DNA of 64,000 nt from Polyangiaceae bacterium (GTDB lineage: Bacteria; Myxococcota_A; Polyangia; Polyangiales; Polyangiaceae). The position numbers and the translations under genes are program-made. This document shows positions 14,062-53,523 of the stretch, in pieces; within the stretch, counting starts at the first letter, position 1; each line of letters opens with the position of its first letter. The notes below the pieces were generated by a model that saw nothing but the letters and a program-made list of their open reading frames with translations, had not been told where the DNA came from and ran no database searches. The stretch spans positions 3,136,001 through 3,200,000 of the forward strand of contig CBDCTZ010000016.1 in NCBI GenBank assembly GCA_965222375.1, given 5' to 3'.

Positions 14062-15396
14062 TCACTGAGGAAGGGCGGACTCGCGAATGGCTCCCCAGAG
14101 TTCTGCGACGGCGTCGTCTTCTGGGGCGAGTTGGACCGCTAGTTCTGCCTCGAGGCGCGCGTCTGCCATGCGGCCGTCGCTGAGCAAGAGCCATCCAAAC
14201 GTGACGTGGAACGCCGCGCTGTGGATTTCGCCGTAGGCGCGCAGTCGGTCAAAGACGTGGATGCCCCCCGCGTAGTCACCGCGCTCGGCGCAAATACGTG
14301 CGACCTCACCGGCGACGTCGACCCGATCCGGTGCTAGCGACAGTGCGGTGCGCCATGCGGCGGGCGCGTCGGGGTGGCCAAGCAGCTCGGCGGCGTGGGC
14401 GGCAATGCGAGCTGCGCAGGGCTCCGTGGGCTCGAGCTCCAAAGCGCGGACACTGAGGCCGAGGGCGCCGCGGGGATCATCGGTTAGCAATGCGATTTCG
14501 GCCATGGCGGCGTAGGTTGCTGCGCACTCCGGGTCGGCGGCCTGCGCTGCGTTGAGAGCGCCGACGGCGGCATCTCCCTGGCCCAACTGGATCTCGCACC
14601 GCGCTTCACCTAGGTGGGCTTCTCGCGTTGTCGCGGCGTTGCCTCCTTGAGAGCCCCGGCTGAAGGCGTCCCGCGCGGCCTCGAAGTCCCCGGCGTGCTC
14701 TGCCTGGGCGGCTTCGACCAGAGCGTCAGCCCAGAGCGTACGAACTGGCCAGGCCCAGCAGGCGACGAAGCTGCCCCGCTGCATGATCCAACCGTCGAGT
14801 GCCAGGCCAGCCCGGGTCAGCAGGCGCTGCAGCTCTTGGGACGAAAACGCTCGTCGCAAGGGTGCCGTGAGTCGCTGTCGGACGACGGCGCTCGGTTCCG
14901 CGATCACGATCTGCGCGTGTGCTTCGGCTGCCTCGCGCACATGCATCAATACGGCCAGAGGTTGCTTCACGTGGCCCAATACGTCGGCGATGATGACATG
15001 GCTCGCTTGCAGCTCTGGAAAGGGCTGCTCGATGTCATGACTGACTACTTCGACATCGTCGGTGTATTCCCGCGCGAAGACCAATGCTTCGGAGTCTCGC
15101 TCCAGCCCAATGACCCGGCCTGCGCGTCGCCGCATCACACTTGCCCCTTCGCCAGCCCCACAACCGACATCCAGGCAGACACCGCCCCGGCACCGCCGGG
15201 CGAGCTCCGCGTAGAAGGCACGGGTGGGAGGCGCGCCCCCGCGCAAGCCAGGATAGCTCCGGCTGCGACTACGAGGGGTGCGCACGATGGTGCCCGATTT
15301 GAAGTGGGCGTAGACCTCTGTTCGATTGGCGCTGCCGACGAAGACGGGCTCCCGACCGGGCTGCTCGGTGGGCTGCGTGCTGAGGCGCGTTGTCAT
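14062..15396 (-). CDS. Class I SAM-dependent methyltransferase with C-terminal TPR-like repeats
   Basis: CLDVGCGAGEG, DVLGHVKQP, then Ala-rich helical repeats; ATG abuts the fliS stop. Confidence 0.85.
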   Translation of the reverse strand: MTTRLSTQPTEQPGREPVFVGSANRTEVYAHFKSGTIVRTPRSRSRSYPGLRGGAPPTRAFYAELARRCRGGVCLDVGCGAGEGASVMRRRAGRVIGLERDSEALVFAREYTDDVEVVSHDIEQPFPELQASHVIIADVLGHVKQPLAVLMHVREAAEAHAQIVIAEPSAVVRQRLTAPLRRAFSSQELQRLLTRAGLALDGWIMQRGSFVACWAWPVRTLWADALVEAAQAEHAGDFEAARDAFSRGSQGGNAATTREAHLGEARCEIQLGQGDAAVGALNAAQAADPECAATYAAMAEIALLTDDPRGALGLSVRALELEPTEPCAARIAAHAAELLGHPDAPAAWRTALSLAPDRVDVAGEVARICAERGDYAGGIHVFDRLRAYGEIHSAAFHVTFGWLLLSDGRMADARLEAELAVQLAPEDDAVAELWGAIRESALPQ

Positions 15397-15789
15397 CTAC
15401 TTGTTGGCTTTCTCCTTCTGCGCTTCGACCACGGCGACCGCCCAAGCCTCGCGCAGAGGCGTCAGAACTCGAATGACTTCATCCACGACTTCCGGGGTTC
15501 CTTTGAGATTGGCAAAGGTGATCTTGTCCATGCAAAAGCCGTACACGCCTTCGAGGTTGGCGCAGAGCTCTGGGTTCACGTCGTGGTCGAGGGCGATGTA
15601 GAGTTCGGAGACCACCGAGTAGGCCTTGCTCAGCAGTTCGCCCCCTCGGGCTTTGTCGCCCTTTGCCAAGCAGATCCGAGCTCCCTTCAAGAACCGAAAC
15701 AGCCCATCGTACAGAGCGATGAGCAGCTCTCCAGGGTTGGAGGTGTTGGCTTGGACTTCTTGGTAACGGAGCGCGGCTGTTTGCATCAT
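15397..15789 (-). CDS. fliS: Flagellin export chaperone FliS
   Basis: YQEVQANTSNPGELLIALYDG...LREAW; downstream of fliD. Confidence 0.93.
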   Translation of the reverse strand: MMQTAALRYQEVQANTSNPGELLIALYDGLFRFLKGARICLAKGDKARGGELLSKAYSVVSELYIALDHDVNPELCANLEGVYGFCMDKITFANLKGTPEVVDEVIRVLTPLREAWAVAVVEAQKEKANK

Positions 15790-15802
15790 GATGTCAATAT
15801 GT

Positions 15803-15829
15803 TGACCGGCTGCAGGGCGCCGAACCTGA
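15803..15829 (-). promoter_or_regulatory. sigma28-like promoter of fliS, flanked by GTCA-N6-TGAC boxes (15793-15806, 15840-15853)
   Basis: TCAG-N15-GCCGGTCA on the minus strand; two palindromic boxes. Confidence 0.55.
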
Positions 15830-15865
15830 GCCCCCGAGAGTCATTCTTTTGACGCTGAGCGAGCG

Positions 15866-17200
15866 TCAACCACCTGAATACAGCTGGATCAGGTAGTCCA
15901 TCTGCGCGTTCGACGCCGCTACGCGCGTGTCCATGGAGGAGAACTGCTTGCGGAGCAGATCGGCGTAGCGCTCCAGGCGCTTTTCCTCCGCGGCAACCCG
16001 GTCGTCCAGGCTGTCGGCGCGCTCTTCGAGGGTCTCTTTGCGCATGTCGAGCAGTCCGGTGCCGGTTTCCGTGAAGTTGCCGACGACATCCCGGAATACA
16101 TCCATGGCGCCATCGTTTCCGGTCACTCCCGCGAGCATCTGCTTCACGGAGTCTGGGTCCGTTTGGACCGCCGTAGAGAACTTGGCTGAGTCCAGACTGA
16201 GCTTGCCGGATTTGTCGGCGGTGAGGCCGATGCTACCGAGCGTCTGGTAGTTGCCGGAGCCTGCGACGACGGTCTGCAGGGCGGCAGAGAGCTTGGTGCC
16301 GAGGCCTCGCAGCATGGAATCCCCGGCTAGTACCGGATTGGTGGGTTTGATGCTGCCGTAACCCGCCGTGGCTTGGATCTTGTCCACGACGGCGTTGTAG
16401 GCGGTCACGAGGCTTTCGAGTTTGGTTTGAAGGCCGTCGGGGTCTGCGGCGACGCTCACGGTGACCGGTGAAGTCGTCGTCTCGGTCAAGTCGAGGGTCA
16501 GGCCTTGGATGGCGCCGCTGATTTGGTTGGTGGACCGGGTGACCGTGAAACCGTCGATGCTGACTACAGCGTCCGACGCGGCTTGTTTGGTATTGGCTGG
16601 GGTAGTCAGCCCCAGAGTGGTCGTGGTTTCTGCGAAGCTGATGGCGTTGGCGGTACCCGTGTCCTGGCCGGACACCTGCATGTAGTAGTTCGTGCCGTCG
16701 TAGAATACCGAGGCGTTGACTCGCGCGGAGCTGGAGTTGATCTTGCCAACAATGTCCTCAAGGGTGTCCGCCGCATCGATGGTGATGCTCACCGGGCCGT
16801 CGGTACCTACGGTGATATCCAGGTTTCCGGACTGGCCGAGGGCCGTCGTGCTGGAGGCGAAGGCATCCGTATAGGTGCGCTGCTCCTTGGCCAAGCTCGT
16901 GACGTCGATGGCGTAGCTGCCGGGTTGGGCCGTGCCCAGTGCTGAAACTCCGATGGCCGTCGATGAAGACGACGCGGTGTAGCTGGCGGCGTCTGACGGC
17001 TCGTCCAAGGCTTCCAAGGACGTCTTCAGAGTTGCCAGCATGCTGCCCAAGTCCGACAGGGTGCTGACGGCAGCATGAGTCGAGGCTGCACGACTCTTGA
17101 GGGAAGACACCGCACCGCTGGAAGCGCCGACCAGGCCATTGACGATACCTTCCGTATCGATTCCTGAACCGATGCCGCCGAAAGAAATGGTACCGGGCAT
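15866..17200 (-). CDS. fliD: Flagellar filament cap FliD
   Basis: FGGIGSGIDTEGIV N-terminus; LRKQFSSMD C-terminus. Confidence 0.95.
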   Translation of the reverse strand: MPGTISFGGIGSGIDTEGIVNGLVGASSGAVSSLKSRAASTHAAVSTLSDLGSMLATLKTSLEALDEPSDAASYTASSSSTAIGVSALGTAQPGSYAIDVTSLAKEQRTYTDAFASSTTALGQSGNLDITVGTDGPVSITIDAADTLEDIVGKINSSSARVNASVFYDGTNYYMQVSGQDTGTANAISFAETTTTLGLTTPANTKQAASDAVVSIDGFTVTRSTNQISGAIQGLTLDLTETTTSPVTVSVAADPDGLQTKLESLVTAYNAVVDKIQATAGYGSIKPTNPVLAGDSMLRGLGTKLSAALQTVVAGSGNYQTLGSIGLTADKSGKLSLDSAKFSTAVQTDPDSVKQMLAGVTGNDGAMDVFRDVVGNFTETGTGLLDMRKETLEERADSLDDRVAAEEKRLERYADLLRKQFSSMDTRVAASNAQMDYLIQLYSGG

Positions 17201-17231
17201 CTATCAACTACCTTCCGTGTGCTGGGCGTTC

Positions 17232-21640: not shown

Positions 21641-22522
21641 TCAGCCGAAGCGATGCAAGGCGCTCAGATCCAGTATCTGACGCGACACGGTGACGGCCTG
21701 CTCCAAAGATTGATTCAGGGACATCATCTTGGAATAGGACGAGAAGGGGTCGGCCTGGCTCACGCGTTGGTCTTGAGCGGCCAGGCCCAAATTGGTTTGC
21801 TCGAGGAGAGCGTCACTGGTCCGGAGCTTTTCGCTCAGCAAGCCCACCTTGGAGCGAGCCTGGATGAGCTGTTTTTGAGACGCTTCCAATCCGTCCAGGG
21901 TTGCCGCGACGGCGGCCGGGTCGTCGTTGCTGAGGGCAGTTTCGAGGGCGTCGAGGTCGGCAAAAACGTCGCGCCCGCCTGCCATGGTGAAGGCTTCGGC
22001 GCCGGCAAGATCGATCACGGTCGGCCCGCTCGCACCCAGGTCAACCACGAGGTCCGTGGCATCCCCGGAATACACGCCAGCCGCGTCGAAGGGCGCCGTG
22101 GCAGTTTGACTGCCTCCGAATAGGTAGCCGCGAGTGCCTTCGGTATTGCCCACGGTGACCAGCTGATCTCGGAGGTTTCGCACGGCTTCGGCCAAGGAAT
22201 TGCGCTCGTCAGCGGACAGACTGCCATTGGCGCCCTGGATGGCGATTTCGCGCGCGCGGGCGAACAGGTCGGAGGCTTCCGCCAGGGAGCTCTCGGCTTG
22301 CTCTGTGTCCCCAAGGGTGTGGCGTACGGTTTGGCGTTGGGCTTCGACCCGAGCCTGGGCTGAGCGATTGCGTATCAGCTCTGCCGCCGCGATAGGATCG
22401 TCGGAAGGCGCGGAGACTCGAGAGCCCGATAGCGCCTCGCGCGCAGCTTCGTTCTGTCGGGAGCTCAGCTCAGCCAAGGTGCGCGACACGTTGGCGTACT
22501 TCAGGCCTTCGGTGACTCTCAT
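21641..22522 (-). CDS. flgL: Hook-filament junction protein FlgL
   Basis: MRVT, SGSRVSAPSDDP, YLFGG; overlaps the flgK stop. Confidence 0.93.
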   Translation of the reverse strand: MRVTEGLKYANVSRTLAELSSRQNEAAREALSGSRVSAPSDDPIAAAELIRNRSAQARVEAQRQTVRHTLGDTEQAESSLAEASDLFARAREIAIQGANGSLSADERNSLAEAVRNLRDQLVTVGNTEGTRGYLFGGSQTATAPFDAAGVYSGDATDLVVDLGASGPTVIDLAGAEAFTMAGGRDVFADLDALETALSNDDPAAVAATLDGLEASQKQLIQARSKVGLLSEKLRTSDALLEQTNLGLAAQDQRVSQADPFSSYSKMMSLNQSLEQAVTVSRQILDLSALHRFG

Positions 22523-23913
22523 GACCCGACTCTCGCCATCAGCTCACGCAACAGTTCATCCACGGTGCTGATGACTTTCGCGGCGGCTTCGTAGCCTCGC
22601 TGGTAGCGTGTCAGGGAGATCATCTCTTCATCCAAAGACACCCCGCTCTCGCTCTCTCGCAGAGCTTCGACTTGAGCCAGTACACCCTGGCGAAGCTGGC
22701 CTTCGCTTGCGGCACTGGCCTTGCGCATTCCGAAGTCGCCCACGATGTCCGAGTACGCTTCCGTGAAGGTGCGGGTGCCTCCGCTTGCGGCGTTCGCGGT
22801 CGAAAGCGCGGACAGCAGCGCCGCATTGTCACTGCCCCCGGGGAGGTCGGCGACGTTGGCAGAGGCGGCCACGCGATCGGGTTGCCCCGCGAGCTGCGGG
22901 TCCACGCGAATGGCCCGGGCGGCGCCGGCTGCCGTTGCCGTGATCTCGAATAGGGGGCGGCCGCCCACGCCATCGAGGCCGACGCCTGCGGCATGCTGGG
23001 TGTTGACTGCCGTGGCCAGATCGAAGGCGAGCTGATCCAGCCGCTGCGCGGTGGCCGCAAGGTCTACGTCCCGAGCATCTCGGATCCCGGCCAGCGCGCC
23101 GCCGCTCAGGTATTTCGTGATTTCCGTGGGTTGTCCGCTTCCGGAGCTGGCAAAGAGTCGAATGTTGCCGTTCGCAGCCAAGTCGATGGAAAGGGAGCGT
23201 GCGTTTTCACCCTCGACCAAGGTCGTTCCCGCAGCCTGTACGACCAAGTGCCCCTCCCCGTCGGTGAAGGTGTGCACGTCGACTTGGTTGGACAGCCCGA
23301 GCAGCATTTGATTGAGGCGGTCTTTGAGGTCCGCAGCGTCCTGACCCGAAGCTTCTGCCAAGGAGATCTGCCGGTTCAGCTCCGAGAGCTGGATCGCCTT
23401 CTGATTGATTTCGTCGACCACGGCGCGCCCGCGAGACAGCTGCTCTTCCCGAGCACTGGCGATGCCGTCGGCGATGTCGCGGATGTGGCTGGTGAGCTGC
23501 TCCGCGCGCTGCAGCAAATTGACTCGCGTGGTGGGATCCGACGGATTGGACGCGACGGAGCTGAACGCGCCGAAGAGCTGGTCCAAGGAACTGCCTAGGC
23601 CGGTGCCCAAGAAGTCGTTGAGAAGCGGTTCCACCCGGCCCAGCTGGCCATCTCGTTCACTCGCCGCCGAGGCCAAGCTGGCGGCTGCGTAGTAACGCCG
23701 GTCCACATACTGATCCGCCGCGCGGCGCAGCCCCACGGCTTCGACCCCGCCGTAGGTTTGAGTTCCCAAGACGACGTTCTGGAGGATGGCCTCCCGGCGG
23801 ACGTAGCCGCCCGTGTTGGCGTTGGCGACATTCTGCCCGGCGACACCGAGCCCATAGGACTGTGCGGAAAGCGCGTCGCGGGCCGTATAAAGAAGCTGCG
23901 ACAGGGAGCCCAT
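22519..23913 (-). CDS. flgK: Hook-associated protein FlgK
   Basis: GQNVANANTGGYVRR; SGVSLDEEMISLTRYQRGYEAAAKVI. Confidence 0.95.
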   Translation of the reverse strand: MGSLSQLLYTARDALSAQSYGLGVAGQNVANANTGGYVRREAILQNVVLGTQTYGGVEAVGLRRAADQYVDRRYYAAASLASAASERDGQLGRVEPLLNDFLGTGLGSSLDQLFGAFSSVASNPSDPTTRVNLLQRAEQLTSHIRDIADGIASAREEQLSRGRAVVDEINQKAIQLSELNRQISLAEASGQDAADLKDRLNQMLLGLSNQVDVHTFTDGEGHLVVQAAGTTLVEGENARSLSIDLAANGNIRLFASSGSGQPTEITKYLSGGALAGIRDARDVDLAATAQRLDQLAFDLATAVNTQHAAGVGLDGVGGRPLFEITATAAGAARAIRVDPQLAGQPDRVAASANVADLPGGSDNAALLSALSTANAASGGTRTFTEAYSDIVGDFGMRKASAASEGQLRQGVLAQVEALRESESGVSLDEEMISLTRYQRGYEAAAKVISTVDELLRELMARVGS

Positions 23914-23917
23914 GGGA

Positions 23918-24274
23918 CTAGACCTTCACGTCCAAGCGAACGGGTGCCGTACTCTGGCGCGCCAGCGGATGCTCTATGCTGGGAGCTCCGGTCATGGTTG
24001 CGATCACTCCCCGCACGGTGTCTCTGGCGTGCACCAGCAACATCTGGTTGTTGAGTGCTGCGACTCGCACGCGTTCGGCGATCTCGCGATCTTCTTGCGC
24101 CAGGGGACCAGCCTGAGCAAGCCCGCGCTCGACTTTCAGTTTGCGCGCGGCGATTTGCTCCAGCTCCTCCCCCTTGGGGCTGCGAAGCGCGAGGGCCTCT
24201 TCAGCCAGGATGACCTCGAGTTCTTCGAGGAGCTTGCGCGGCGTTTTTGGCGTTCTCTGTGGCCCTGATTCCAT
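23918..24274 (-). CDS. flgN: FlgN-like export chaperone
   Basis: Small helical protein (EEALAL...LNNQMLL) between flgM and flgK. Confidence 0.6.
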   Translation of the reverse strand: MESGPQRTPKTPRKLLEELEVILAEEALALRSPKGEELEQIAARKLKVERGLAQAGPLAQEDREIAERVRVAALNNQMLLVHARDTVRGVIATMTGAPSIEHPLARQSTAPVRLDVKV

Positions 24275-24297
24275 GACTACCTTCCCCCCACCCCGTG

Positions 24298-24585
24298 CTA
24301 TCCGAGCTCGTCCAAAATGCGACCTGCGATCTGATGCGGGTCAACCTGGAACGAACCGTCTTGAATGCGCGCTTTGAGCGCCTCCACCTTTTGTGTGTCC
24401 ACGACTCCCCCAGTTCCACTGGCTGCAAGATCTCGGGCTTCCGCGGAGATGCTCACTTTTGCTGCCTCTGCTGGAGCTTGGGGTGAGCTCGCGTCCACCT
24501 TCTCCGCCGGGCGTGCCTCCTTCACCGGTGACACCGCCATGCGGTGGTAAGCGTCGAGCGCCGGGTTCCCAGTGATGCCTTTCAT
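24298..24585 (-). CDS. flgM: Anti-sigma28 factor FlgM
   Basis: KVSISAEA...DTQKVEALKARIQDGSFQVDPHQIAGRI. Confidence 0.92.
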   Translation of the reverse strand: MKGITGNPALDAYHRMAVSPVKEARPAEKVDASSPQAPAEAAKVSISAEARDLAASGTGGVVDTQKVEALKARIQDGSFQVDPHQIAGRILDELG

Positions 24586-24998: not shown

Positions 24999-25008
24999 GA
25001 ATCCATAC

Positions 25009-26145: not shown

Positions 26146-26157
26146 GGGTGTGGTTGT

Positions 26158-27596: not shown

Positions 27597-27598
27597 CG

Positions 27599-30489: not shown

Positions 30490-30558
30490 TTTGAGCCTCC
30501 TTAAGTTCCCGTGAATGTCGGTAGCGGGAGTGCACCAAAGCAATGCGCGGTCCATCAT

Positions 30559-38061: not shown

Positions 38062-38065
38062 CGAC

Positions 38066-38740: not shown

Positions 38741-38775
38741 CCAAGAGCGAGGAAATGCGAGAGCAGGAGGCCTAA

Positions 38776-40660: not shown

Positions 40661-40661
40661 C

Positions 40662-41648: not shown

Positions 41649-41666
41649 ATGTAGCAGTCGATCAGC

Positions 41667-43482: not shown

Positions 43483-43748
43483 GCACTGACGGTGCAGTCG
43501 AGCTCCTCCGTAATGCCATGATCGTCACGGCCATGGTAGCCGGCCCGTTGTTGTTGGCCGCTCTGCTCATGGGCCTGGTGGTTGGCGTGTTGCAGGCGGC
43601 GACCCAAGTCAACGAAGCCAGCATCAGCTTCGTGACCAAACTGATCGCAATCGCAACGATGTTCCTGCTGCTCGGCTCTTGGACCTTGCGCCAAATGGTC
43701 GACTACACGCACCGCACGATTGCATCCATTTCCGATGTGACGCGGTGA
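43479..43748 (+). CDS. fliQ: Export gate FliQ
   Basis: GLVVGVLQAATQVNEASISFVTK. Confidence 0.95.
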   Translation: MSTDGAVELLRNAMIVTAMVAGPLLLAALLMGLVVGVLQAATQVNEASISFVTKLIAIATMFLLLGSWTLRQMVDYTHRTIASISDVTR

Positions 43749-44527
43749 ACACTCTCAATCAGATCGCGACCCTGGAACTATACGCCTTCCTCTTGGAAGG
43801 CGTCCGCATATTGGGCGTGCTGCTGATCGCTCCCCTGTCTTGGTCCGTGGCCCCGGCGCGAGTGCGCGCTGGCTTGGTCATCGTGCTGGCGGTCGTTGCG
43901 CACGGGCAAACCCCCGCGGACTCGGCTGTGCTCGACTCCCTCGTCGCCCTGGCCCTGGCATTGGGCGCCGAGTTTGTCTTGGGCCTGGCGATGGGCTTCG
44001 TCGTGCGGCTCAGCATCGCTGTCGCTGAGATTGCCGCCGAGGGTGTGGCGCCACTGATTGGTTTGGGCATCGCCCAAGTGTTCGACCCGGCCATCTCGGG
44101 CAGCCAAAACGTGCTTGCGAAGTTGTTCCGCAATTTCGCCATCTTGTTGGCCGTCGTTGCCGGAGTGCATCGCGTGGTGCTGGGCGCCTTGTTGCAGAGC
44201 TTCAGGATCCTGCCCCCAGGAACACCGTCCTCGGTTCACCTCACGGTGCCGTCCATCTTGCAGTTGAGTGCGGATGCTCTGGCGTCGGGCGTGCGCATCG
44301 CCGTTCCCCTTATCGCCATCCTCTTCATGACCCAGATCGCTCTCGCGTTCATTTCCCGAGCTGCGCCTGCGATGCAGATTTTTTCGATCGGCTTCGCAGT
44401 CACGTTGCTCGTTGGAATGAGCGTGCTGATTCTCGCCTCCCCGGATATGGGGCATCAAATTCTCGTTGACCTCTCCCACGTCGGGCGGCGAATCGAAACG
44501 CTGCTCCTCGTTCTGACGACTGGATGA
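43745..44527 (+). CDS. fliR: Export gate FliR
   Basis: Hydrophobic; GLGIAQVFDP, SRAAPAMQIFSIGF. Confidence 0.93.
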   Translation: MNTLNQIATLELYAFLLEGVRILGVLLIAPLSWSVAPARVRAGLVIVLAVVAHGQTPADSAVLDSLVALALALGAEFVLGLAMGFVVRLSIAVAEIAAEGVAPLIGLGIAQVFDPAISGSQNVLAKLFRNFAILLAVVAGVHRVVLGALLQSFRILPPGTPSSVHLTVPSILQLSADALASGVRIAVPLIAILFMTQIALAFISRAAPAMQIFSIGFAVTLLVGMSVLILASPDMGHQILVDLSHVGRRIETLLLVLTTG

Positions 44528-44531
44528 GCCG

Positions 44532-45599
44532 ATGTCCCAGAACGACGATGCCGAAAAAACAGAGGAGGCAACTCCAGAACGGAGGAAAAAGGCTCGCGAG
44601 GAAGGCCAGATCCCCAAAGCGAAGGATGCCGGCGCCGTCGCCGCATCCTTCGCCGTGCTGTTGGGATTGGTGGCGTTCGGTGATGAGCTTGTCGCCGCCG
44701 TTCGGGTCTTTGCGACCAGCTGCCTCGGGCAACCCCGGGAGCTTTCCCAAGGCGGGTTCGACCGAGTGGGCCAGATGGCGGGTGGAGTCCTTGCCGTGAC
44801 GTCCATTCCTCTCGCCATGGCTGCAGCAATAGCGGCTACCGGCATGGGATTCCTTGAAGCTGGATACATGCCTCGCGCGGAGCTGGTGGCGCCGAAATGG
44901 AACCGCTTGTCACCCTTGAACAAGCTCAAGCAGCTGTTCTCGCCGGTGTCCGGCACGACGAACACCCTGCTTGCTCTCGCTCGGGTGGGCGTTGTGGGTG
45001 GGGTCGCCTACTACGTATGCGCCGATGCATTTCCTGCGCTGACGCGCATGTCTCGGGCGCCCCTGTCTGGAAGCATCATCGCGATTGCAGATGTGGCGGC
45101 GCGATTGGCTCTATGGGCGACTCTCGCGTTGGCGGCCCTGGCCGTCGTCGACTACGCGCAAGCCTGGTTCAAGCACGAAAAGCAGATCCGCATGAGCCGC
45201 CAAGAGGTCAAGGACGAGATGAAGCAGCAAGAGGGCGACCCTCAGCTGAAGTCACGCCAGCGGGCAAAGGCTCGGGAGTTGGCCAAACGCAACATTGCAA
45301 AGGAACTCAAGACTGCCGACGTCGTCATCACCAACCCAACCCACGTGGCCGTTGCTGTGCGCTATCGGCCTCAGGAGGGAGCGCCGGTAGTGGTAGCCAA
45401 AGGTTTCGACGACGTTGCCCAGTACATCAAGGAGTTGGCCAAGGAGCTAGAGATCCCGACTGTGGAGAACGTCCCCCTAGCCCGTGGTTTGGCGGACCAG
45501 GTGCGAGTCGGTCGCGCTATTCCCGTGGAGCTCTATGCAGCCGTCGCCGAAGTGCTCGCCTTCGTCTACAGACTGCAGGGGCGCGGGCGGAGGGCCTAG
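44532..45599 (+). CDS. flhB: Export switch protein FlhB
   Basis: EKTEEAT, EGDPQLK, NPTH autocleavage site, VAEVLAFVY. Confidence 0.96.
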   Translation: MSQNDDAEKTEEATPERRKKAREEGQIPKAKDAGAVAASFAVLLGLVAFGDELVAAVRVFATSCLGQPRELSQGGFDRVGQMAGGVLAVTSIPLAMAAAIAATGMGFLEAGYMPRAELVAPKWNRLSPLNKLKQLFSPVSGTTNTLLALARVGVVGGVAYYVCADAFPALTRMSRAPLSGSIIAIADVAARLALWATLALAALAVVDYAQAWFKHEKQIRMSRQEVKDEMKQQEGDPQLKSRQRAKARELAKRNIAKELKTADVVITNPTHVAVAVRYRPQEGAPVVVAKGFDDVAQYIKELAKELEIPTVENVPLARGLADQVRVGRAIPVELYAAVAEVLAFVYRLQGRGRRA

Positions 45600-45777: not shown

Positions 45778-47067
45778 ATGAAGTTGCTCTTCGTCGACGA
45801 CGAACCCAATGTGCTGCGAGGCCTCTCACGCTTGCTTTTTCAGTACAGCGACGAGTGGGACATGCACTTTTCGTCCAGTGGGGAGGAGGCATTGCGTGTC
45901 TTGAGCGAGGACCCCATCGACGTCCTGGTGACCGACATGCGCATGCCCGGGATGGACGGCGCCAAGCTGCTCGAGATCGTGCACGAGAAACACCCTCGGG
46001 TCGCGCGGGTCGTGCTTTCCGGTCATACGGAGCTGGAAGTTGCGCTGCGAGCCATGCCCGTGGCGCATCAATTTCTCGCCAAGCCGTGTCCAGCCGAGGC
46101 GCTGCGTGGCGTCCTGGAGAGGGCTGCGCGTTTGCATACCTTGGTTGAAGATCCGGTTCTTCAACAGCTCGTCGGCGGGCTTTCGGCCTTGCCCGCTCGA
46201 CCGACGGTGTTCTTCGAGTTGAATCGAGTGCTGGCTCAAGACAAGGCCGGCGCGCGGGATGTTGCCAAGGTGATCGGTGACGACGTCGGTATCAGCGCGA
46301 CGGTGTTGCACTTGGTCAACTCTGCCTTCTTTGGTGCGTCATCCCAGATAAGGGCCGTGGACGCCGCCGTGGCGCGCCTGGGAGTCAACGTGGTCAAGTC
46401 AGTTGTCCTGAGCGCAGAAGTTGCCCGAGCATTCCAAGTGGCACCGGCCCACGCCGACTACATCGACGCGGTCACCCAAGCCTCGCTCAGGGTCGCCCGC
46501 GTCGCCCAGGCCATCGCACCAAAGCTCGTGACCCGTCGCGGAGCCGCGGATGCCGTCTCGGATGTGTTCATGTCGGGCATTCTGCACCGCGTGGGTCTGT
46601 TGGTGCTGGCCGCCAAGGCGCCCGCGCGCTTGCTCGAACTGCGAGAAGCTCGAGAAGGCTCGGACGAGTCGGAAGCCGAGCTGGAACGCAGGATTCTGGG
46701 CACGACCCATCCGGACATCGGCGCCTATCTGTTGGGCCTGTGGGGGTTGCCCTACGACATCAGCGAGGCGGTGCAGTTTCATCGCCTGCCCGAGGCGCTT
46801 GCTGGCCAGGGTTGGTCCCCAGGAGCGGTGCTCGCTCTGGCGCGCGCCCTGGTCGACGAGCTCGACGCACCTTCAGAAGCCCCAGATGTCGAAGTCACCG
46901 TCGATGCACTGCGATGCGACGCGAACCTCAGCGAGCTGCGCGAGGTTCGAGATCGTGTCTGCTGCGCTGAGCACGACAGCGGGCGTCGGAGCGGTGACGA
47001 CCTACGGCGCCAGTCCTCTGGCGCTTCAGGCCGCAAGCGCCGCCATCCAGGCAGCGGCGATGTGTGA
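45778..47067 (+). CDS. Response regulator with REC and HDOD domains
   Basis: LLFVDDEP, TDMRMPGMDG, LHLVNSAFF, GAYLLGLWGLP. Confidence 0.9.
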   Translation: MKLLFVDDEPNVLRGLSRLLFQYSDEWDMHFSSSGEEALRVLSEDPIDVLVTDMRMPGMDGAKLLEIVHEKHPRVARVVLSGHTELEVALRAMPVAHQFLAKPCPAEALRGVLERAARLHTLVEDPVLQQLVGGLSALPARPTVFFELNRVLAQDKAGARDVAKVIGDDVGISATVLHLVNSAFFGASSQIRAVDAAVARLGVNVVKSVVLSAEVARAFQVAPAHADYIDAVTQASLRVARVAQAIAPKLVTRRGAADAVSDVFMSGILHRVGLLVLAAKAPARLLELREAREGSDESEAELERRILGTTHPDIGAYLLGLWGLPYDISEAVQFHRLPEALAGQGWSPGAVLALARALVDELDAPSEAPDVEVTVDALRCDANLSELREVRDRVCCAEHDSGRRSGDDLRRQSSGASGRKRRHPGSGDV

Positions 47068-47143: not shown

Positions 47144-49237
47144 GTGGCCTCCAGCATCGCTGCGAATGATACGACGAGTACCGTCAAGGAATTGACGATA
47201 CCTCTCGCCATCGTCGGCATCGTGCTGATGATGGTCTTGCCGCTGCCGGCGTTCTTCATCGACCTGCTTTTGGCGTTCTCCTTGGCTGTGTCCATCGGGG
47301 TTTTCCTGATTGGGCTATTCATGGAGTCTCCCCTTCAGTTCAGCTCCTTTCCCGCGGTCATTCTCGTCGCCACGTTGTTGCGACTGAGCCTGAACGTTGC
47401 GACGACGCGGCTGATTCTGCTCAAGGGTCACGAGGGTCATAACGCTGCGGGGCAGGTCGTCGAGACCTTCGGGAAGTTCGTCGTCGGCGGCAACGTGGTT
47501 GTCGGCCTGGTCGTGTTCCTGATTCTGGTCGTGATCAACTTCGTGGTGATCACCAAGGGTGCGGGCCGCGTCGCAGAAGTCGCCGCGCGCTTTGCCTTGG
47601 ACGGCATGCCCGGCAAGCAGATGGCAATCGACGCTGACATGAATGCTGGGATCATTTCAGCGGACGTTGCCCGCGATCGCCGCCGCGGCATCGAGCGAGA
47701 AGCCGATTTCTACGGCGCCATGGATGGCGCGAGCAAGTTCGTCAAGGGTGACGCCATCGCCGGCCTGTTGATCACCGCGATCAACCTGATCGGTGGCTTG
47801 TTGATTGGCGTAGGTGGTGGGATGAGCCTCGCGAGTGCCGCCGAGACCTTCTCGATTCTGTCCGTAGGCGACGCGCTGGTATCCCAGATGCCCTCGCTGT
47901 TGGTTTCCACGGCCGCTGGTGTGGTGGTGACACGGTCAGCGACCGGACAGCAACTGGGGCGAGCATTCCGTTCACAACTGTTGGGCAGTCATCGTGCTGC
48001 CGCGGCAACCGCGGGCGTGCTCGCCGTGTTCGCGGTTCTGCCGGGAATGCCAGCGCTGCCGTTCTTGGCCATCGCGGGCGCGCTGATCTGGACGGCCAAG
48101 AATGCCAAGGCCCTCGAGCCCGTGGAAGCCACCCCGGAGGACGCTCCAGAAGAGTCTGGGCCGCAGCCGGCGTCTCAAGAAGACATCGAGGCTTCACTGC
48201 CTCTCGACGTCATGTCGCTCGAGGTCGGCTACGAGCTCATTCACATCGTCGATCCTAAGATGGGCGGCTCCTTGGTGGATCGCATCGCTGCTCTTCGCAA
48301 GCAGATCGCCATGGACCTGGGCATTGTGATCCCTCCAGTTCACATTCGCGACAACCTTGCCCTCGGCCCAGGAGCCTACCGCTTCATGCTGTTAGGCACG
48401 GAGATCACAGGTGGCGAAGTGCGCGGTGGAAAGCTCCTGGCCATGGACGCCACGGGAACCGCGGCTCCCATCGAAGGCGAAGAAACCAAAGACCCTGCCT
48501 TCGGCACGCCGGCGCGCTGGGTCACGACACGCGACCGCGAGCTAGCGGAAGCGCTCGGCTACACCGTTGTCGATCACACCACCATCGTCGCCACTCACCT
48601 GGCGGAGATCGTCCGACGCCACGCTCACGAGATAGTCGGGCGTTCCGAGCTTTCCCACCTATTCGAGGTGTTCTCTCGTTCGACGCCGAAGCTGGTCGAA
48701 GACCTGATCCCGAACCAATTGTCCCTGGGCGAGACGCTCAAGGTCGTGCGCAACCTGTTGCGCGAGAGCGTCTCGATTCGGGACCTGCGCACGCTACTGG
48801 AAGCGCTGATTGAGCTTTCCGTGGGCACGCGGGATCCCGAGCAGCTCACCGAGATGGTTCGCCAGCGGCTGTCGCGTCAACTGACCACTCAAGTCAGCAG
48901 CGCCGATGGCACCGTGTCCACCTTGGTGCTCGACGCGGCCGTGGAGGAGATCTTCCGCCGCTCTTTGCGCGAGATTGCCAGTGGCACCGGCGGTGCCCTG
49001 GACCCAGAGCAAGCAAAGACTCTGGGACAAGCTCTGGAGGCGGCCTGTCAACGCATGTTGGCGGCAGGTCGCCCTCCATTGGTCGTGACTGGGCCGGACG
49101 TTCGGCGCTACGTGCGTGCGTTCGCAGAGCGCCGCTGCCCTATGCTCACGGTGCTTTCGTTCCGCGAGATCGAACCGGAAGCGACGATTCGTCCTTTCGA
49201 GGTGATTCAGCTGGAGGAGCAGGTGCAGAGCCAATGA
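47144..49237 (+). CDS. flhA: Export gate protein FlhA
   Basis: RLSLNVATTR, EVAARFALDGMPGKQMAIDAD, FYGAMDGASKFVKGDA. Confidence 0.97.
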   Translation: MASSIAANDTTSTVKELTIPLAIVGIVLMMVLPLPAFFIDLLLAFSLAVSIGVFLIGLFMESPLQFSSFPAVILVATLLRLSLNVATTRLILLKGHEGHNAAGQVVETFGKFVVGGNVVVGLVVFLILVVINFVVITKGAGRVAEVAARFALDGMPGKQMAIDADMNAGIISADVARDRRRGIEREADFYGAMDGASKFVKGDAIAGLLITAINLIGGLLIGVGGGMSLASAAETFSILSVGDALVSQMPSLLVSTAAGVVVTRSATGQQLGRAFRSQLLGSHRAAAATAGVLAVFAVLPGMPALPFLAIAGALIWTAKNAKALEPVEATPEDAPEESGPQPASQEDIEASLPLDVMSLEVGYELIHIVDPKMGGSLVDRIAALRKQIAMDLGIVIPPVHIRDNLALGPGAYRFMLLGTEITGGEVRGGKLLAMDATGTAAPIEGEETKDPAFGTPARWVTTRDRELAEALGYTVVDHTTIVATHLAEIVRRHAHEIVGRSELSHLFEVFSRSTPKLVEDLIPNQLSLGETLKVVRNLLRESVSIRDLRTLLEALIELSVGTRDPEQLTEMVRQRLSRQLTTQVSSADGTVSTLVLDAAVEEIFRRSLREIASGTGGALDPEQAKTLGQALEAACQRMLAAGRPPLVVTGPDVRRYVRAFAERRCPMLTVLSFREIEPEATIRPFEVIQLEEQVQSQ

Positions 49238-49249
49238 TGGAGGTGACCG

Positions 49250-50380
49250 TTGCAGTACCAGTTGTTTAGGGGAGTTGACGTGCGGGAAGCCCTCAAGGCA
49301 GTCAAGGCCGCCTTTGGACCCGACGCCGTGATTCATTCCACGCGGGAAATCAGCAATGGCCGTGGCGGTGCGCTTGGCGCGACCTTCATCGAGGTTGCGG
49401 CCGCGCCGGCGACGGAGGTCCAACGCTGGCCTTTCAAGGAGGCCCGCGGCCGCGGTGACGGCGCCCGGCGCGAGAGCACTCGCGCGCGGGCTCGCTCCCT
49501 GGGCAAGGGCATGGGCGTTACCCGCACCCTCGGGCTCGATGCCCGAGAGATCGAGCGGGAACTCTCGGTGTTGCGCTCGATGTTGGAAGACCTGAATGCG
49601 AGTCGGCCGCCCCGCCAGCGCGCCTATTCGATGCTGGCTGGGCTCGGCGTCGAGGGCACGCTGGCTCGGGAACTCGCGAACGGTTCAGCGCGAGCAGCAC
49701 GTCGCGGGGAGGACGCCCTGAAGACATGGCTGCGCCAGCGGCTCACGGAGCGGCTTTGCGAGTGCGATGACGTCATCTTGTCGCAGGAGCCGACACTGAT
49801 CGCAGCTGTGGGGCAAACGGGCGTTGGCAAGACCACCACCCTGGCCAAGCTCGCCGCGCGCGCGCGACTTGACCACGGTCGCTCTGTGGCGATCATCAGT
49901 CTGGATACCTACCGGGTTGGCGCGGTCGAGCAGTGGCAACGCTACGCGACCTTGATGGGTCTGCCGTTCTTCACGGCGCAGGACGAATCCGAGTTTCAGG
50001 CAGCGCTGGCCGAGTGCCGTACGGACATCGTCCTCGTGGACACGGCGGGTCGCAGTACGCTCGCCGACGACCAACGTTGGACCGTGCCGGCGTGTCTGCA
50101 GCTGGCTTCAGGGCGCATACCTCACGTCCTGTTGGTGATGCCGGCTTGGACGCGGGGCAGCGACGCTGAACGTGCAGTGTCCGCGTACGCGGAGGCAGGC
50201 GTCACGGGCCTATGCGTCACGAAGTTGGACGAGACGTTGCAAGCGGGCGGAGTGCTGCACGCCGCCATCCCCGCCGATCTCCCCTTCTACTACCTCTGCG
50301 ATGGCCCTCGGGTACCCGAGGACATTCGCTCCGCGTCCGTCAACGCCGTCGTTGACGCCCTATTCGAAAGTGCGCCGTGA
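49250..50380 (+). CDS. flhF: SRP-type GTPase FlhF
   Basis: GQTGVGKTTT, DTYRVGA, DTAGRS, TKLDE, RVPEDI. Confidence 0.93.
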   Translation: MQYQLFRGVDVREALKAVKAAFGPDAVIHSTREISNGRGGALGATFIEVAAAPATEVQRWPFKEARGRGDGARRESTRARARSLGKGMGVTRTLGLDAREIERELSVLRSMLEDLNASRPPRQRAYSMLAGLGVEGTLARELANGSARAARRGEDALKTWLRQRLTERLCECDDVILSQEPTLIAAVGQTGVGKTTTLAKLAARARLDHGRSVAIISLDTYRVGAVEQWQRYATLMGLPFFTAQDESEFQAALAECRTDIVLVDTAGRSTLADDQRWTVPACLQLASGRIPHVLLVMPAWTRGSDAERAVSAYAEAGVTGLCVTKLDETLQAGGVLHAAIPADLPFYYLCDGPRVPEDIRSASVNAVVDALFESAP

Positions 50381-51111
50381 CGACCACTCAAGCAGCCGGA
50401 ACCAAGAAAATGAGTACAGCAGCCCTGAAGCGGGATCCGCTCGCGGACCGTGACACAGCGAGTCGCTACATGCCGCTCGTACGGAGAATTGCCATCCGAA
50501 CCGCACGAACGTTGCCATCGAGCGTCAGCTTTGACGACGTACTCAGCGCGGGCTGGGTTGGAATGGCCGAGGCGCTCACCCGGCGTCGCCCAGACATGGA
50601 CGAGGAGCACTTCGAGGCGTACGCCTCGCATCGCGTGCGCGGCGCCATCTTGGATTACCTCCGCGGACTGGATCCGTTGTCCCGCAAGCTGCGAGGGGCG
50701 TCACGGAAGATCACGGAGGCTGTCCGGGATTTGTCGCGGCGTTTCGAACGAAACCCAACGGAAGACGAGGTTGCCGGTGAGCTTGGGCTTGAGCTGGCGG
50801 AGTACCAGAAGCTCTTGGCGCAAATCTCCGAGGCTGGATACGCCCGGCTGGAACTGTCTGGCGACGAGCGAACCGACGACCCATCACCCGAGGCGATGGC
50901 TTCCCGCAGCGAAATGGTCGGGGCGGTGACCGCTGCGATTCAAACTCTGTCCGAGCGCCTGCAAATGGTCTTGGGGCTCTACTATCAGGAGGACTGTAGC
51001 TTCCGGGAAATCGGTGAAATCCTCGGAGTCACAGAGTCCCGAGTCTGCCAGCTTCACTCCGAAGCGGTTCACCTGATTCGCGCTCGACTCGGGCGCTCTA
51101 GACCCTCCTGA
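50377..51111 (+). CDS. fliA: Flagellar sigma factor FliA (sigma28)
   Basis: RVRGAILDYLR, YYQED, EIGEILGVTESRVCQLH. Confidence 0.94.
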   Translation: MTTTQAAGTKKMSTAALKRDPLADRDTASRYMPLVRRIAIRTARTLPSSVSFDDVLSAGWVGMAEALTRRRPDMDEEHFEAYASHRVRGAILDYLRGLDPLSRKLRGASRKITEAVRDLSRRFERNPTEDEVAGELGLELAEYQKLLAQISEAGYARLELSGDERTDDPSPEAMASRSEMVGAVTAAIQTLSERLQMVLGLYYQEDCSFREIGEILGVTESRVCQLHSEAVHLIRARLGRSRPS

Positions 51112-51143
51112 ACCACGGGCGATCCGGCGGCCAAAGTTTTTGC

Positions 51144-51170
51144 TCAAGGATCAGCGGAGGGCGCCGATGG
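51144..51170 (+). promoter_or_regulatory. sigma28 promoter of the histidine kinase gene
   Basis: TCAA-N15-GCCGATGG. Confidence 0.72.
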
Positions 51171-51190
51171 ACTCTGGTGGAGCAAAGTTC

Positions 51191-51940
51191 GTGTCTGCTG
51201 CCAAGAAATTGGGGGAGGTCGACCCCGAAAATGCCAGTGGGGTCTACCCCGTGCAGTCTCGCTTGGCCTCCAGCGAAACCACGACTTTCGCCCTGCATGA
51301 CGCCAAGAACCTGACCTGTGCCCTTGCGGCGAGCGTGGAGTGGCTCAGGAGTCAGTACTCCGTCGCGAGTGCAGATCGAGAAGTCGTGGAAGCCGTGCGC
51401 GACATGTCCAACACCTGCACGGAACTCACTGAGTTGCTCTCCCAGGCCCTCGCGGCCTCTCGCTCGGGGCGCGCGGCACTGTCTCTTCGTCGAGAGCGCG
51501 CGAGAGCATCCGAGCTGACTCGCCAGGTGCAGCGCCGCTACCGTGCCCGCGCGGCAATCCTCGGCGTCGAGCTCGCAGTCGAGGGCGGGGAGGACGCGGC
51601 ATTGTCGGTGGATCGCGTGCTGTGGGTCCGAGTTATCGATAATCTGGTAGACAACGCGCTCCGTGCTGCGCCGCCCGGCTCTCAGGTGAGCTTGTTCTAC
51701 GGGCAGGTGGGTGACGACGTGGTCTTCAGCGTGTCGGACCAAGGCCGCGGCGTGCCCGAGGCACAGCGCGACGGCATCTTCGGTATGTTCGCAGGTTCCG
51801 CACCCAAGACAGAGCGCACGGCGTTCGGTGTGGGGCTTGCGTTCTGTCGCCGCGTTGTCGAAGCGCATGGCGGAGAATTGACGGTTTCCGATTCGCCCGG
51901 TGGCGGAGCGACGTTTGTTGCTAAAATTCCAACGGTGTAG
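51191..51940 (+). CDS. Cytoplasmic histidine kinase with no sensor domain
   Basis: H box LHDAKN, N box NLVDNALR, DQGRG, GVGLAFC; GTG start chosen downstream of the promoter. Confidence 0.85.
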   Translation: MSAAKKLGEVDPENASGVYPVQSRLASSETTTFALHDAKNLTCALAASVEWLRSQYSVASADREVVEAVRDMSNTCTELTELLSQALAASRSGRAALSLRRERARASELTRQVQRRYRARAAILGVELAVEGGEDAALSVDRVLWVRVIDNLVDNALRAAPPGSQVSLFYGQVGDDVVFSVSDQGRGVPEAQRDGIFGMFAGSAPKTERTAFGVGLAFCRRVVEAHGGELTVSDSPGGGATFVAKIPTV

Positions 51941-51953
51941 AGCATGAAAAAAC

Positions 51954-51969
51954 TGGCATCCCGTTTGCA
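51954..51969 (+). promoter_or_regulatory. sigma54 promoter of fliW
   Basis: TGGCAT-CCCGT-TTGCA. Confidence 0.7.
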
Positions 51970-52021
51970 CAACCCTGATACGGACGACGATTCCTCGTCC
52001 CCAAAGCAAGGGTGCTCAGTA

Positions 52022-52528
52022 ATGAGGATAGAAACGGATAGATTCGGCATGATCGAGCTAGAGAGCTCGGAGGTGATCAACTTCCCGGCAGGGGTGATCG
52101 GGTTCCCCAGCGACAAGAACTTCGCCCTGATTCCCCACGGCAGTTCGGAGTGCATTGGCTGGCTCCAGTCCCTCGACAACGGGGATCTGGCGCTCCCAGT
52201 GGTTTCCGCCCACGGTCTTGGCGCGGAGTACCCGGACGTGCCCATCGACGGTGCGGCTCGGGAAGCTGGTATCGCGGAAGACCCGACGGAGGTTGCCGTG
52301 CTTGCGGTGCTGTGCGCTCCGCGGGGCCAACCCGCGACGGTCAACCTCATGGCGCCTATCGTCGTCAACTCCAACACGCGGACGGGCGCACAGGTCGCTC
52401 TGGATGGCACGCGGTTTTCTACCCGCGAACTATTCCTACTCGGGCCCACTGCCGACGACAACAACGCCGCTCCCGGGGAGCGTGAAGCCGAGCAAGCGGC
52501 GGGACCAGCTATTGTCCCAGCGGAGTAG
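52022..52528 (+). CDS. fliW: Flagellar assembly factor FliW
   Basis: IETDRFG...FPAGVIGF, WLQSLD, TVNLMAPIVVN. Confidence 0.92.
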   Translation: MRIETDRFGMIELESSEVINFPAGVIGFPSDKNFALIPHGSSECIGWLQSLDNGDLALPVVSAHGLGAEYPDVPIDGAAREAGIAEDPTEVAVLAVLCAPRGQPATVNLMAPIVVNSNTRTGAQVALDGTRFSTRELFLLGPTADDNNAAPGEREAEQAAGPAIVPAE

Positions 52529-52656: not shown

Positions 52657-52668
52657 GATCAAGCGAGT

Positions 52669-53124
52669 ATGCGACTAGTTCGAGACAGCGGAATCTTTCG
52701 ACGCATTCAGCGAGACCCCAGGGAACGGGCACGTCGCGGCGCCGAGGAAGTGACCGGCCACCCCTGCGTGGTCGTGGATCTAACCGGGGATTCACCTGGG
52801 CTGGTCAGTCAGCGCGTTGCCGGACCGAGCTGGCGTGCCACCCGCTTGCTGGCCCTGCTCGCTGAACTCGAAGGGCCCAAGCTACTCCGGGGCTTCTGCG
52901 CTGGCTGCTTCGGCCTCGACGGTATTTGGGCCGTTCCCGTTCAGTCTCCGGCGCGCGACTGCGGCTACTTGATCGTCTTGGGGCAAATCACGGCCCCGGG
53001 CTTGAAGGAACTCGAGGCCATTGCCGCGGAATTGAGCCTTGAGCTCGAAGCAGAAGAGCGCAGGACCGGTCTGATGCTGCCCCAAGAGCAGGAGTGTTGC
53101 CTCTCGACGCGGCGAGTTGCCTAG
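52669..53124 (+). CDS. Hypothetical protein, possibly GAF-like
   Basis: Open frame directly after a sigma28-like promoter; WAVPV...GYLIV...LEAIAAELS pattern. Confidence 0.6.
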   Translation: MRLVRDSGIFRRIQRDPRERARRGAEEVTGHPCVVVDLTGDSPGLVSQRVAGPSWRATRLLALLAELEGPKLLRGFCAGCFGLDGIWAVPVQSPARDCGYLIVLGQITAPGLKELEAIAAELSLELEAEERRTGLMLPQEQECCLSTRRVA

Positions 53125-53187
53125 CGCAGCGCTGAGAAGAGACGATTAGCGCACAGCCCCTCGATGGGCACGCCCCTTCTTTTTCCC

Positions 53188-53214
53188 TAAAGATCCTGGG
53201 CTGACGGCCGCTCA
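53188..53214 (+). promoter_or_regulatory. sigma28-like promoter
   Basis: TAAA-N15-GCCGCTCA. Confidence 0.65.
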
Positions 53215-53265
53215 TCTCAGTATGCGCGTGAGTGTCCAGTGCCTGTCGTTCGAGAGGCGACCTGA

Positions 53266-53523
53266 ATGAAGCCGGTGGGGCACGTGATGCACGTCGCTGC
53301 CGCAGGTGTGGTCCGCGCCCAAGACGCATTCACCAAAGCAGCCACGGAGCTTCCGAAGTCCCTCATCGTCGACTCCGTGTCCCTCACTGGCGAGGCACGC
53401 CCGGACCCTGCCCAGACCATGATGGACATGCGAGTGGCCAAGTACGCCTTCGTTGCGAATCTGCGAGTGCTTCAGACCGCTGACGAAAACCAGCGAGAGC
53501 TGGCGGATATTCTGAAGCGCTGA
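53266..53523 (+). CDS. Miniature rod/hook-like protein (terminal D0 helices only)
   Basis: MHVAAAGVVRAQ start; DPAQTMMDMRVAKYAFVANLRVLQTADE resembles the rod C-terminal motif. Confidence 0.7.
   Translation: MKPVGHVMHVAAAGVVRAQDAFTKAATELPKSLIVDSVSLTGEARPDPAQTMMDMRVAKYAFVANLRVLQTADENQRELADILKR

Follow-up and report, generated by a model that had tools for sequence, protein, structure and literature searches.

A flagellar gene supercluster with nearby stator, rod and chemotaxis genes in a genome of apparent Polyangiaceae type

The DNA considered here is a window of 64 kb (C16:3136001-3200000 of genome G000), which lies on a 3.48-Mb contig (C16) of an assembly of 10.56 Mb in 16 contigs that is 98% complete. 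The window carries a flagellar gene cluster at its positions 15397-53523, in which about 40 flagellar genes could be named with Pfam and NCBIfam profiles (Table 1). None of these genes was interrupted in a scan of the long open reading frames (ORFs) and none of about 50 ORFs was broken in the profile scans, and this upholds the uninterrupted flagellar gene set reported in a preliminary description of the window. On the minus strand, the genes run from fliS to flgG in the order of the table and are followed by two small ORFs and the gene of a sigma-54 activator, from which the plus-strand genes flgB to flhB diverge. A response-regulator-HDOD gene, flhA, flhF, fliA, a gene for a histidine-kinase-type ATPase and fliW come after flhB on the plus strand. 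The motility region as a whole extends over about 70 kb (C16:3119963-3189523) and is broken by a few unrelated genes, which encode a glyceraldehyde-3-phosphate dehydrogenase, a transporter of the major facilitator superfamily, a BNR-repeat protein and an IstB-like fragment.

No motA, motB, flgF or flhG gene was found within the 64-kb window, and the preliminary description had concluded that the system has neither stator genes nor flgF, while proposing a search of the whole genome for stator families. This search located a motA-motB pair on the same contig. The pair precedes both the window and the cluster, at distances of 4.7 kb and 18.8 kb, and a rod gene of the FlgF type stands 15 kb before the window start. 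Both conclusions had to be given up, and by the refuting condition that the preliminary description had itself set, the presence of canonical motAB and flgF on this contig overturns the idea of a machine without stators. Nine matches to PF01618 (MotA_ExbB) occur in the genome, of which one, 6 kb before the window, is motA and 8 are other genes; PF20560 (MotA_N) and PF13677 (MotB_plug) have a single match each in the genome, both of them at motAB.

The start of motB is 14 bp past the end of motA. MotA matched PF20560 with 31-33 bits and PF01618 with 102-105 bits, both above the cut-offs, and MotB matched PF13677 with 58-61 bits and PF00691 with 61 bits. Residues 1-248 of MotA align with Vibrio PomA (E 1e-56), 10 of 10 matches in the PDB were stator A subunits, and the NCBIfam matches were to PomA, MotP or MotA models only (PomA 260 bits, MotP 236 bits), with no non-flagellar model outscoring the flagellar stator models. 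By a hand count on the alignment, R88, R89, E96 and E99 of the cytoplasmic loop and P151, T158, T185, T186 and P199 of the channel helices stand at the same-numbered positions of PomA, which we take to matter for FliG contact and ion passage. Asp23 of MotB (D23, in ATFSDM) aligns with the transmembrane Asp of Clostridium MotB. The features looked for in a stator, namely the N-terminal and channel domains of MotA, the plug, Asp and OmpA-like domain of MotB and the adjacency of the two genes, were all found, and the pair is identified by them as a canonical flagellar stator of the PomA/MotP-like type. It resembles the stators PomAB of Vibrio and MotPS of Bacillus, which form the 'TGI4' group of flagellar ion transporters (PMC12505986), in the full-length alignment of the A subunit and in the plug, transmembrane Asp and OmpA-like domain of the B subunit, but differs in that its scores are under the NCBIfam equivalog cut-offs of 341 and 394 bits.

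The cluster had also been described as bounded on both sides by non-flagellar genes. This is not the case on the left, where genes for CheA, a methyl-accepting chemotaxis protein with a PAS domain (PAS-MCP), CheB, CheR and a CheY-like receiver sit between the stator genes and the structural cluster. The best NCBIfam model of this receiver is CheY, with 77 bits and under the cut-off. With the genes outside the window included, the parts that occur only in flagella, and so tell them from a non-flagellar type III injectisome, are all present, namely flagellin, FliD, FlgE, FlgK and FlgL, the rod proteins FlgB, FlgC, FlgF and FlgG, the P and L rings, FliG and MotAB.

Pfam profiles were covered at positions 1-656 of 657 by FlhA, 1-343 of 343 by FlgI, 1-191 of 191 by FliP and 2-335 of 335 by FlhB. 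Scores above the cut-offs were obtained for FlgL (TIGR02550, 158.9 bits), FlgG (TIGR02488, 348.9 bits), FlgB (TIGR01396, 66.2 bits), FlgC (TIGR01395, 162.9 bits), FlhF (TIGR03499, 204.5 bits) and FliA (PRK06986, 204.8 bits), and FlhA (FHIPEP, 834 bits), FlgI (430.8 bits), FlgH (164.9 bits), FlgK (FlgK_D1, 169.9 bits) and FlgM (49.5 bits) were also recognized. Weak Pfam matches, below the curated cut-offs, were all that was obtained for FlgN (22.1 bits), FlgA (ChapFlgA, 20.4 bits), FliJ, FliK and the FlgJ-like protein (Rod-binding, 23.5 bits). The Maf protein matched the PseD flagellin-modification domain of NCBIfam with 68.9 bits, far under the cut-off. FliG is full-length in an alignment with the FliG proteins of Vibrio and Aquifex, and it does keep the charged residues of the torque helix, as had been stated, because the string MSKRAGDRIREDM is present and aligns with MSKRAAEMMRDDI of Vibrio FliG.

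The suggestion that several parts of the machine are simplified together was correct for FliK, which at 199 aa and 29.1 bits, against a Pfam cut-off of 29.8, is the sole clearly short part, and not for FliM, FliP or the flagellins. FliM has 328 aa, compared with 334 aa in the Salmonella chain of 8umd, and aligns weakly with residues 39-317 of Salmonella FliM (E 6e-4). The flagellin at 18430-19266 spans a 282-position flagellin model from end to end.

Table 1. Genes of the motility region and its borders. Positions are those of the 64-kb window, except where preceded by L012 (the 20 kb directly before the window) or C16 (the contig).
Feature	Position	Strand	Evidence
flgF, 244 aa	L012:3963-4697 = C16:3119963-3120697	-	three rod domains; best NCBIfam models FlgF
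Response regulator with HDOD domain	L012:4694-6073	-	
NeuB/cytidylyltransferase/HAD-SIS sugar genes	L012:8111-13669	+	
motA, 254 aa	L012:13678-14442 = C16:3129678-3130442	+	MotA_N + MotA_ExbB
motB, 266 aa	L012:14456-15256 (motAB pair C16:3129678-3131256)	+	MotB_plug + OmpA
cheA with CheW domains	2411-4705	+	Pfam
PAS-MCP	5066-7369	+	Pfam
cheB	7329-8621	+	Pfam
cheR	8507-9442	+	Pfam
CheY-like single-domain response regulator, 129-aa form	13511..13900	-	Pfam Response_reg 90 bits
S-adenosylmethionine (SAM) methyltransferase with TPR repeats, 444 aa, abuts fliS	14062..15396	-	Pfam Methyltransf_23/11 + TPR
fliS	15397-15789	-	Pfam FliS 94.7 bits
fliD	15866-17200	-	Pfam FliD_N + FliD_C 166 bits
Two short flagellin genes	17287-18174, 18430-19266	-	Flagellin_N + Flagellin_C in each
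maf, MptE-like motility accessory factor, 639 aa	19285-21204	-	Pfam MptE-like 99 bits
csrA	21358-21606	-	CsrA 63.6 bits
flgL, flgK, flgN, flgM, flgJ-like rod-binding gene	21641..25073	-	Pfam, NCBIfam
flgI (P ring), flgH (L ring), flgA, flgG	25009..28384	-	Pfam, NCBIfam
Sigma-54 enhancer-binding activator, 395 aa, divergent from flgB operon	29371..30558	-	Pfam Sigma54_activat 242 bits + HTH_8
flgB, flgC, fliE, fliF, fliG, fliH, fliI, fliJ, fliK, flgD, flgE	31081..40071	+	Pfam, NCBIfam
fliL, fliM, fliN, fliO, fliP, fliQ, fliR, flhB	40172..45599	+	Pfam
Response regulator with HDOD domain, 429 aa, between flhB and flhA	45778..47067	+	Pfam
flhA, flhF, fliA, histidine-kinase-type ATPase protein, fliW	47144..52528	+	Pfam, NCBIfam
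85-aa ORF, cluster end	53266..53523	+	Flg_bbr_C (rod-protein C-terminal domain) 26.3 bits, cut-off 23

The markers in the genome agree with the earlier impression that the host belongs to Myxococcota. The MYXO-CTERM sorting signal has 92 matches in this genome and was found in 0 of 14 control genomes, and the myxobacterial cysteine-rich repeat myxo_disulf_rpt has 28 matches. Many of the MYXO-CTERM matches, as well as rpoB, are on the same contig as the flagellar cluster, and the GC content is 0.60-0.65 throughout the window. Among the matches listed from public genomes, the FlhA loci nearest to that of the window, 15 in number, are 61-90% identical; the titles of ten of them, from metagenome-assembled genomes (MAGs), name Polyangiaceae (5), Myxococcales (4) or Sorangiineae (1), and the remaining titles read Proteobacteria (2), delta proteobacterium (2) and uncultured bacterium (1). 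Judged by these counts and titles, the host is a myxobacterium of the phylum Myxococcota and of an uncultured Polyangiaceae type.

An FlhA tree was made from 76 rows after five partial loci had been dropped, with the group set beforehand by locus number and its members picked for their similarity to the query. A single clade, with a Shimodaira-Hasegawa-like approximate likelihood-ratio test (SH-aLRT) value of 100, united the window with 14 related loci and was nested in no other phylum's clade. The deeper branching was not resolved and carried a long-branch warning, and outside this clade FlhA is only 41-53% identical to anything among the matches listed. The tree, as built from these FlhA sequences, therefore speaks for the coherence of the group and not for its origin.

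The stator genes accompany the flagellar genes in the relatives. In a set of 41 genomes, made up of this one and 40 relatives, 21 had FlgI and 20 had MotB_plug; all 20 of the genomes with MotB_plug carry FlgI, and none of the 20 without FlgI has MotB_plug. The sole genome with FlgI and without MotB_plug (G014) is a family member with decay, whose flgI is split into three pieces and contains a TAG stop (G014:C108:17975-18639), in contrast to the intact cluster of the window. A distance of 4-31 kb separates motB from flgI in the 11 genomes, out of the 20, that have both on one contig, and in the other 9 the two genes are on separate contigs of fragmented assemblies.

Pairwise ratios of nonsynonymous to synonymous substitution (dN/dS) by the Nei-Gojobori method (NG86) were 0.053 for FlhA, 0.057 for FlhF and 0.030 for FliA against the 90% identical locus L022, and 0.067 and 0.083 for MotA and 0.146 and 0.264 for MotB against two genomes of the same genus, although these ratios are rough because dS exceeds 1 in most pairs. 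The genes compared in this way are clearly under purifying selection, as estimated from the substitutions, and the range of 0.03-0.26 over the five genes bears out the view that the system is not in decay.

Only flhG is truly missing among the three genes whose absence had been claimed, and its absence is family-wide. The stop of flhF overlaps the start of fliA with no gene between them (window 49250-51111), and flhA, flhF and fliA are contiguous in 15 of 15 related loci (L020-L034), leaving no space for a further gene. A MinD-type ORF follows flhF in at least 33 of 65 outgroup loci, and stands between flhF and fliA in a locus of Bdellovibrionales (L039). With the FlhG of the latter as query against the 41 genomes, strong and near-full-length matches (E 1e-32 to 1e-46) were obtained in five genomes only, all from other families of the order; four of these are flagellated genomes of sister families and one is without flgI (G037), and the match is near flgI on the same contig in three (G026, G029 and G038). 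No strong match was found in any of the 25 genomes of the host family, where generic matches at the level of ParA (E 1e-7 to 1e-14) were all that appeared, and the best match in the genome studied here had an E value of 1.8e-9. Because FlhG is strong in the sister families and at ParA level in all 25 family genomes, we infer that flhG is lost in the host family and that flhF is kept. Phrase searches, in which the papers that came up dealt with mutants as judged by title and abstract, found no published report of a natural lineage with FlhF only, which does not show that there is none in print.

Other candidates for flhG were sought in the rest of the genome. Seven ORFs have a KGGxGK[ST] Walker A motif, and none of them lies among flagellar genes or begins with a DQAxxLR-like sequence. 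Four ParA-like genes were rejected, none being recognized as more specific than ParA/MinD-like; one is preceded by a response-regulator-DUF4388 gene and a Roadblock/LC7 gene and one by another response regulator, one adjoins parB, and one has a long N-terminus. Two paralogous ParA-like ATPases, L100:2762-4897 (C5) and L101:3998-5826 (C15), each come after a response-regulator gene; the copy in L100 also follows the Roadblock/LC7 gene, its response regulator carries DUF4388, and the whole has the look of a polarity-type module. Such an ATPase is a candidate substitute for FlhG, although to link the two is pure speculation.

Flagella are already known in Myxococcota, and the cluster of the window is a further member. 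The excerpted text of Thomas et al. (2008; PMC2330069) describes for Anaeromyxobacter dehalogenans 2CP-C a flagellar cluster of 55.7 kb that contains motA, motB and fliC and runs in the order motAB, che genes and fli genes. According to the same excerpts, swimming was observed in Anaeromyxobacter strain K and was 'not commonly observed' in 2CP-C, cultured fruiting myxobacteria do not swim, and a flagellated ancestor of the myxobacteria is proposed. Flagellar assembly is reported among the Zodletone Myxococcota MAGs in an extract from Murphy et al. (10.1101/2021.07.06.451402), a high expression of flagellins from MAGs of Myxococcota and Bdellovibrionota in an extract from a seamount study (PMC11937823), and Myxococcota are counted as a flagellum-motile phylum in a 2026 preprint (10.64898/2026.06.16.732483). 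The premise of novelty is weak, given the motAB-bearing cluster and the swimming known from the cultured genus Anaeromyxobacter and the listing of the phylum as motile in the preprint.

The Anaeromyxobacter 2CP-C system, as the Thomas et al. excerpts present it, is like the one studied here in belonging to the same phylum, in forming a single large cluster, of 55.7 kb compared with about 70 kb here, with motA and motB and fliC among its genes, and in having che genes between motAB and the fli genes. It differs in its place within the phylum, the FlhA loci nearest to that of the window being titled Polyangiaceae or Myxococcales; none of the 80 FlhA loci listed is from Anaeromyxobacter. The published description, in its excerpted part (PMC2330069), also sets it apart by the absence of fliJ, flgN, flgA, flgJ and fliK, for all five of which the window has at least a weak match. 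The polar flagella of Vibrio, Pseudomonas, Campylobacter and Shewanella share with the present system a sigma-54 activator, FlhF, FliA/FlgM, flagellin modification of the Maf type and short flagellins, but flhG is absent here and the sigma-54 activator is without a receiver or FleQ domain in Pfam, with the FlbD and FlgR models far under their cut-offs.

Of the other genomes of the genus, 4 of 5 had FlgI, as did 16 of 24 in the family and 4 of 16 from other families of the order. A sample of the phylum had flgI in 166 of 401 genomes (E <= 1e-10) and in 127 of 254 genera, and one family had it in 0 of 29. The identity to the FlgI of the window was 56-69% in the family, 51-56% in the order, 43-51% in the class and 37-48% in the rest of the phylum.

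Taken together, these results make it very likely that the ~70-kb supercluster encodes a conventional ion-driven rotary flagellum of a Gram-negative cell under chemotactic control. Its structural set comprises the export gate and ATPase, the MS and C rings, a rod that includes FlgF, the P and L rings, the hook, the junction proteins, the cap and two flagellins, and is common to most of the family. Expression would proceed from the sigma-54 activator to FliA/FlgM, and CsrA and FliW would act on flagellin. Ion flow through MotAB, whichever the coupling ion, would turn the FliG ring. The filament may be glycosylated by Maf with nonulosonic acid made by the products of the NeuB genes, and FlhF would put the flagellum at a pole. 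Because flhG is missing family-wide, the number of flagella must be controlled in another way. By analogy with Anaeromyxobacter, the organism very probably has a swimming phase.

Several points weigh against this picture of a conventional rotary flagellum. MotA reached 260 bits with the PomA model, for which the cut-off is 341, and MotB 209 bits with its family, for which the cut-off is 259, so that both fail the equivalog test, and the best NCBIfam models of FlgF gave 139 bits, below the cut-offs; since the three proteins are under these cut-offs, they are, by their profile scores, divergent members. The FliM protein (window 40662-41648) was seen by Pfam through its C-terminal FliMN_C domain alone, with the middle domain not matched. 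A sequence like LSQxEIDxLL is the CheY-docking motif at the N-terminus of FliM, and a regular-expression search found none in the first ~50 residues of this FliM or in any frame of the window. Because no such motif is recognizable and the middle domain is unseen, the control of switching may differ from the textbook. To these are added the absence of flhG and the roughness of the dN/dS ratios. One of the five other genomes of the genus (G004, 98% complete) has neither flgI nor motB, which implies that the trait can be lost. The whole case is also built from sequence.

It is possible, although we regard it as doubtful, that the finding reaches further, to a family of uncultured, large-genome Polyangiaceae-type myxobacteria with a complete flagellum under selection and a swimming stage that has escaped observation, in which the control layer has been rewired. 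Under this proposal flhG would have been lost and flhF kept, number and placement would be set by something else, perhaps a ParA-like ATPase beside Roadblock and response-regulator genes, and switching through FliM might differ.

It is rather unlikely that the cluster is a cryptic relic, intact but out of use for swimming, whether unexpressed or now serving a different function, for example secretion. The absence of flgI from one genome of the same genus and from about half of the sampled family would agree with this, as would the non-swimming habit of the cultured fruiting myxobacteria and the rarity of swimming in Anaeromyxobacter 2CP-C in the Thomas et al. excerpts (PMC2330069). However, 0 of the ~50 ORFs are broken, and the low dN/dS values include those of MotA and MotB, which are independent of the filament and serve the motor only. 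Genes for chemotaxis, glycosylation and regulation have been retained alongside, and the decay seen in G014, with flgI in pieces and motB gone, is in contrast to the state of the window cluster.

That the genes were recently acquired by horizontal transfer from a flagellated phylum, or that the contig is mis-binned, in which case nothing would follow for myxobacteria, is very improbable. The low identity of FlhA outside its clade and the lack of resolution in the deep branches of the tree leave some room for it, but the 3.48-Mb contig also carries rpoB and MYXO-CTERM genes, the GC content is even over the window, the FlhA clade with its 14 related loci is nested in no other phylum's clade, and the identity of FlgI drops with taxonomic distance from family to order to class. 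The weakest alternative, a machine without stators that would be a non-rotating appendage for secretion or adhesion or be driven by TolQR/AglRQS-type channels, as first proposed for this DNA, could draw on the lack of motAB inside the window and on the 8 further genes of the MotA_ExbB family, and is hardly credible beside a canonical motAB pair 4.7 kb outside the window that has MotA_N, plug, Asp and OmpA, is matched one-to-one by flgI among the relatives and evolves under purifying selection.

A flagellum without stators would have been remarkable; the motor genes were merely outside the window. What the locus does offer is modest but of use, namely one more well-assembled case among those which show that uncultured Myxococcota commonly have flagella, and the frequency of flgI in the phylum contrasts with the textbook picture, which is based on fruiting isolates. 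The loss of flhG throughout the family, and perhaps the atypical FliM, are the sole features of further interest, as a family with FlhF and without FlhG, compared with sister families that have both, constitutes a natural experiment on the control of flagellar number.

Some smaller features of the locus should be mentioned. Two ORFs between flgG and the sigma-54 activator (window 28433-29438, minus strand) gave no family match above the cut-offs; one, of 122 aa, begins with a Cys-rich stretch and ends in a tail that is acidic and of low complexity, and the other has 215 aa and is rich in Gly and Ala. A 402-aa ORF at 17204-18412 was rejected as a wrong frame, having no family match, a high Arg content and a GC content at third codon positions (GC3) of 0.56, compared with 0.77, and the true gene there, in another frame, is a second flagellin. 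A 367-aa ORF at 30688-31791 on the minus strand, which overlaps flgB and flgC and has no family match, was taken as spurious.

The 85-aa ORF at the end of the cluster, which had no match in NCBIfam, may encode a small rod-associated protein or may owe its Pfam match to chance. The possibility that 52561-53523 is one broken flgF gene with an in-frame stop was rejected, as there are three stops between the same-frame ORFs, and the upstream ORF of the pair matches no rod domain and has a translation that looks non-coding; the genuine flgF is the one found upstream, before the window. Between the che genes and the cluster, at window 10521-11180, there is a 219-aa fragment similar to IstB, the helper ATPase of IS21, which covers profile positions 26-122 of 238 and may mark an old insertion or rearrangement.

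Adjoining flgF on the minus strand (L012:1888-3798) is the gene of a 636-aa protein with three Stig1-like cysteine-rich repeats, one of the cysteine-rich repeat proteins common in this genome. Three proteins with HDOD domains are found around the motility region. Two of them have receiver domains, the product of 45778-47067 and that of L012:4694-6073, which adjoins flgF, and the third (window 54274-56688) is an 804-aa HDOD-HD protein encoded just after the cluster. The insertion of the response-regulator-HDOD gene between flhB and flhA was seen, among the 15 related loci, in the 90% identical L022 alone.

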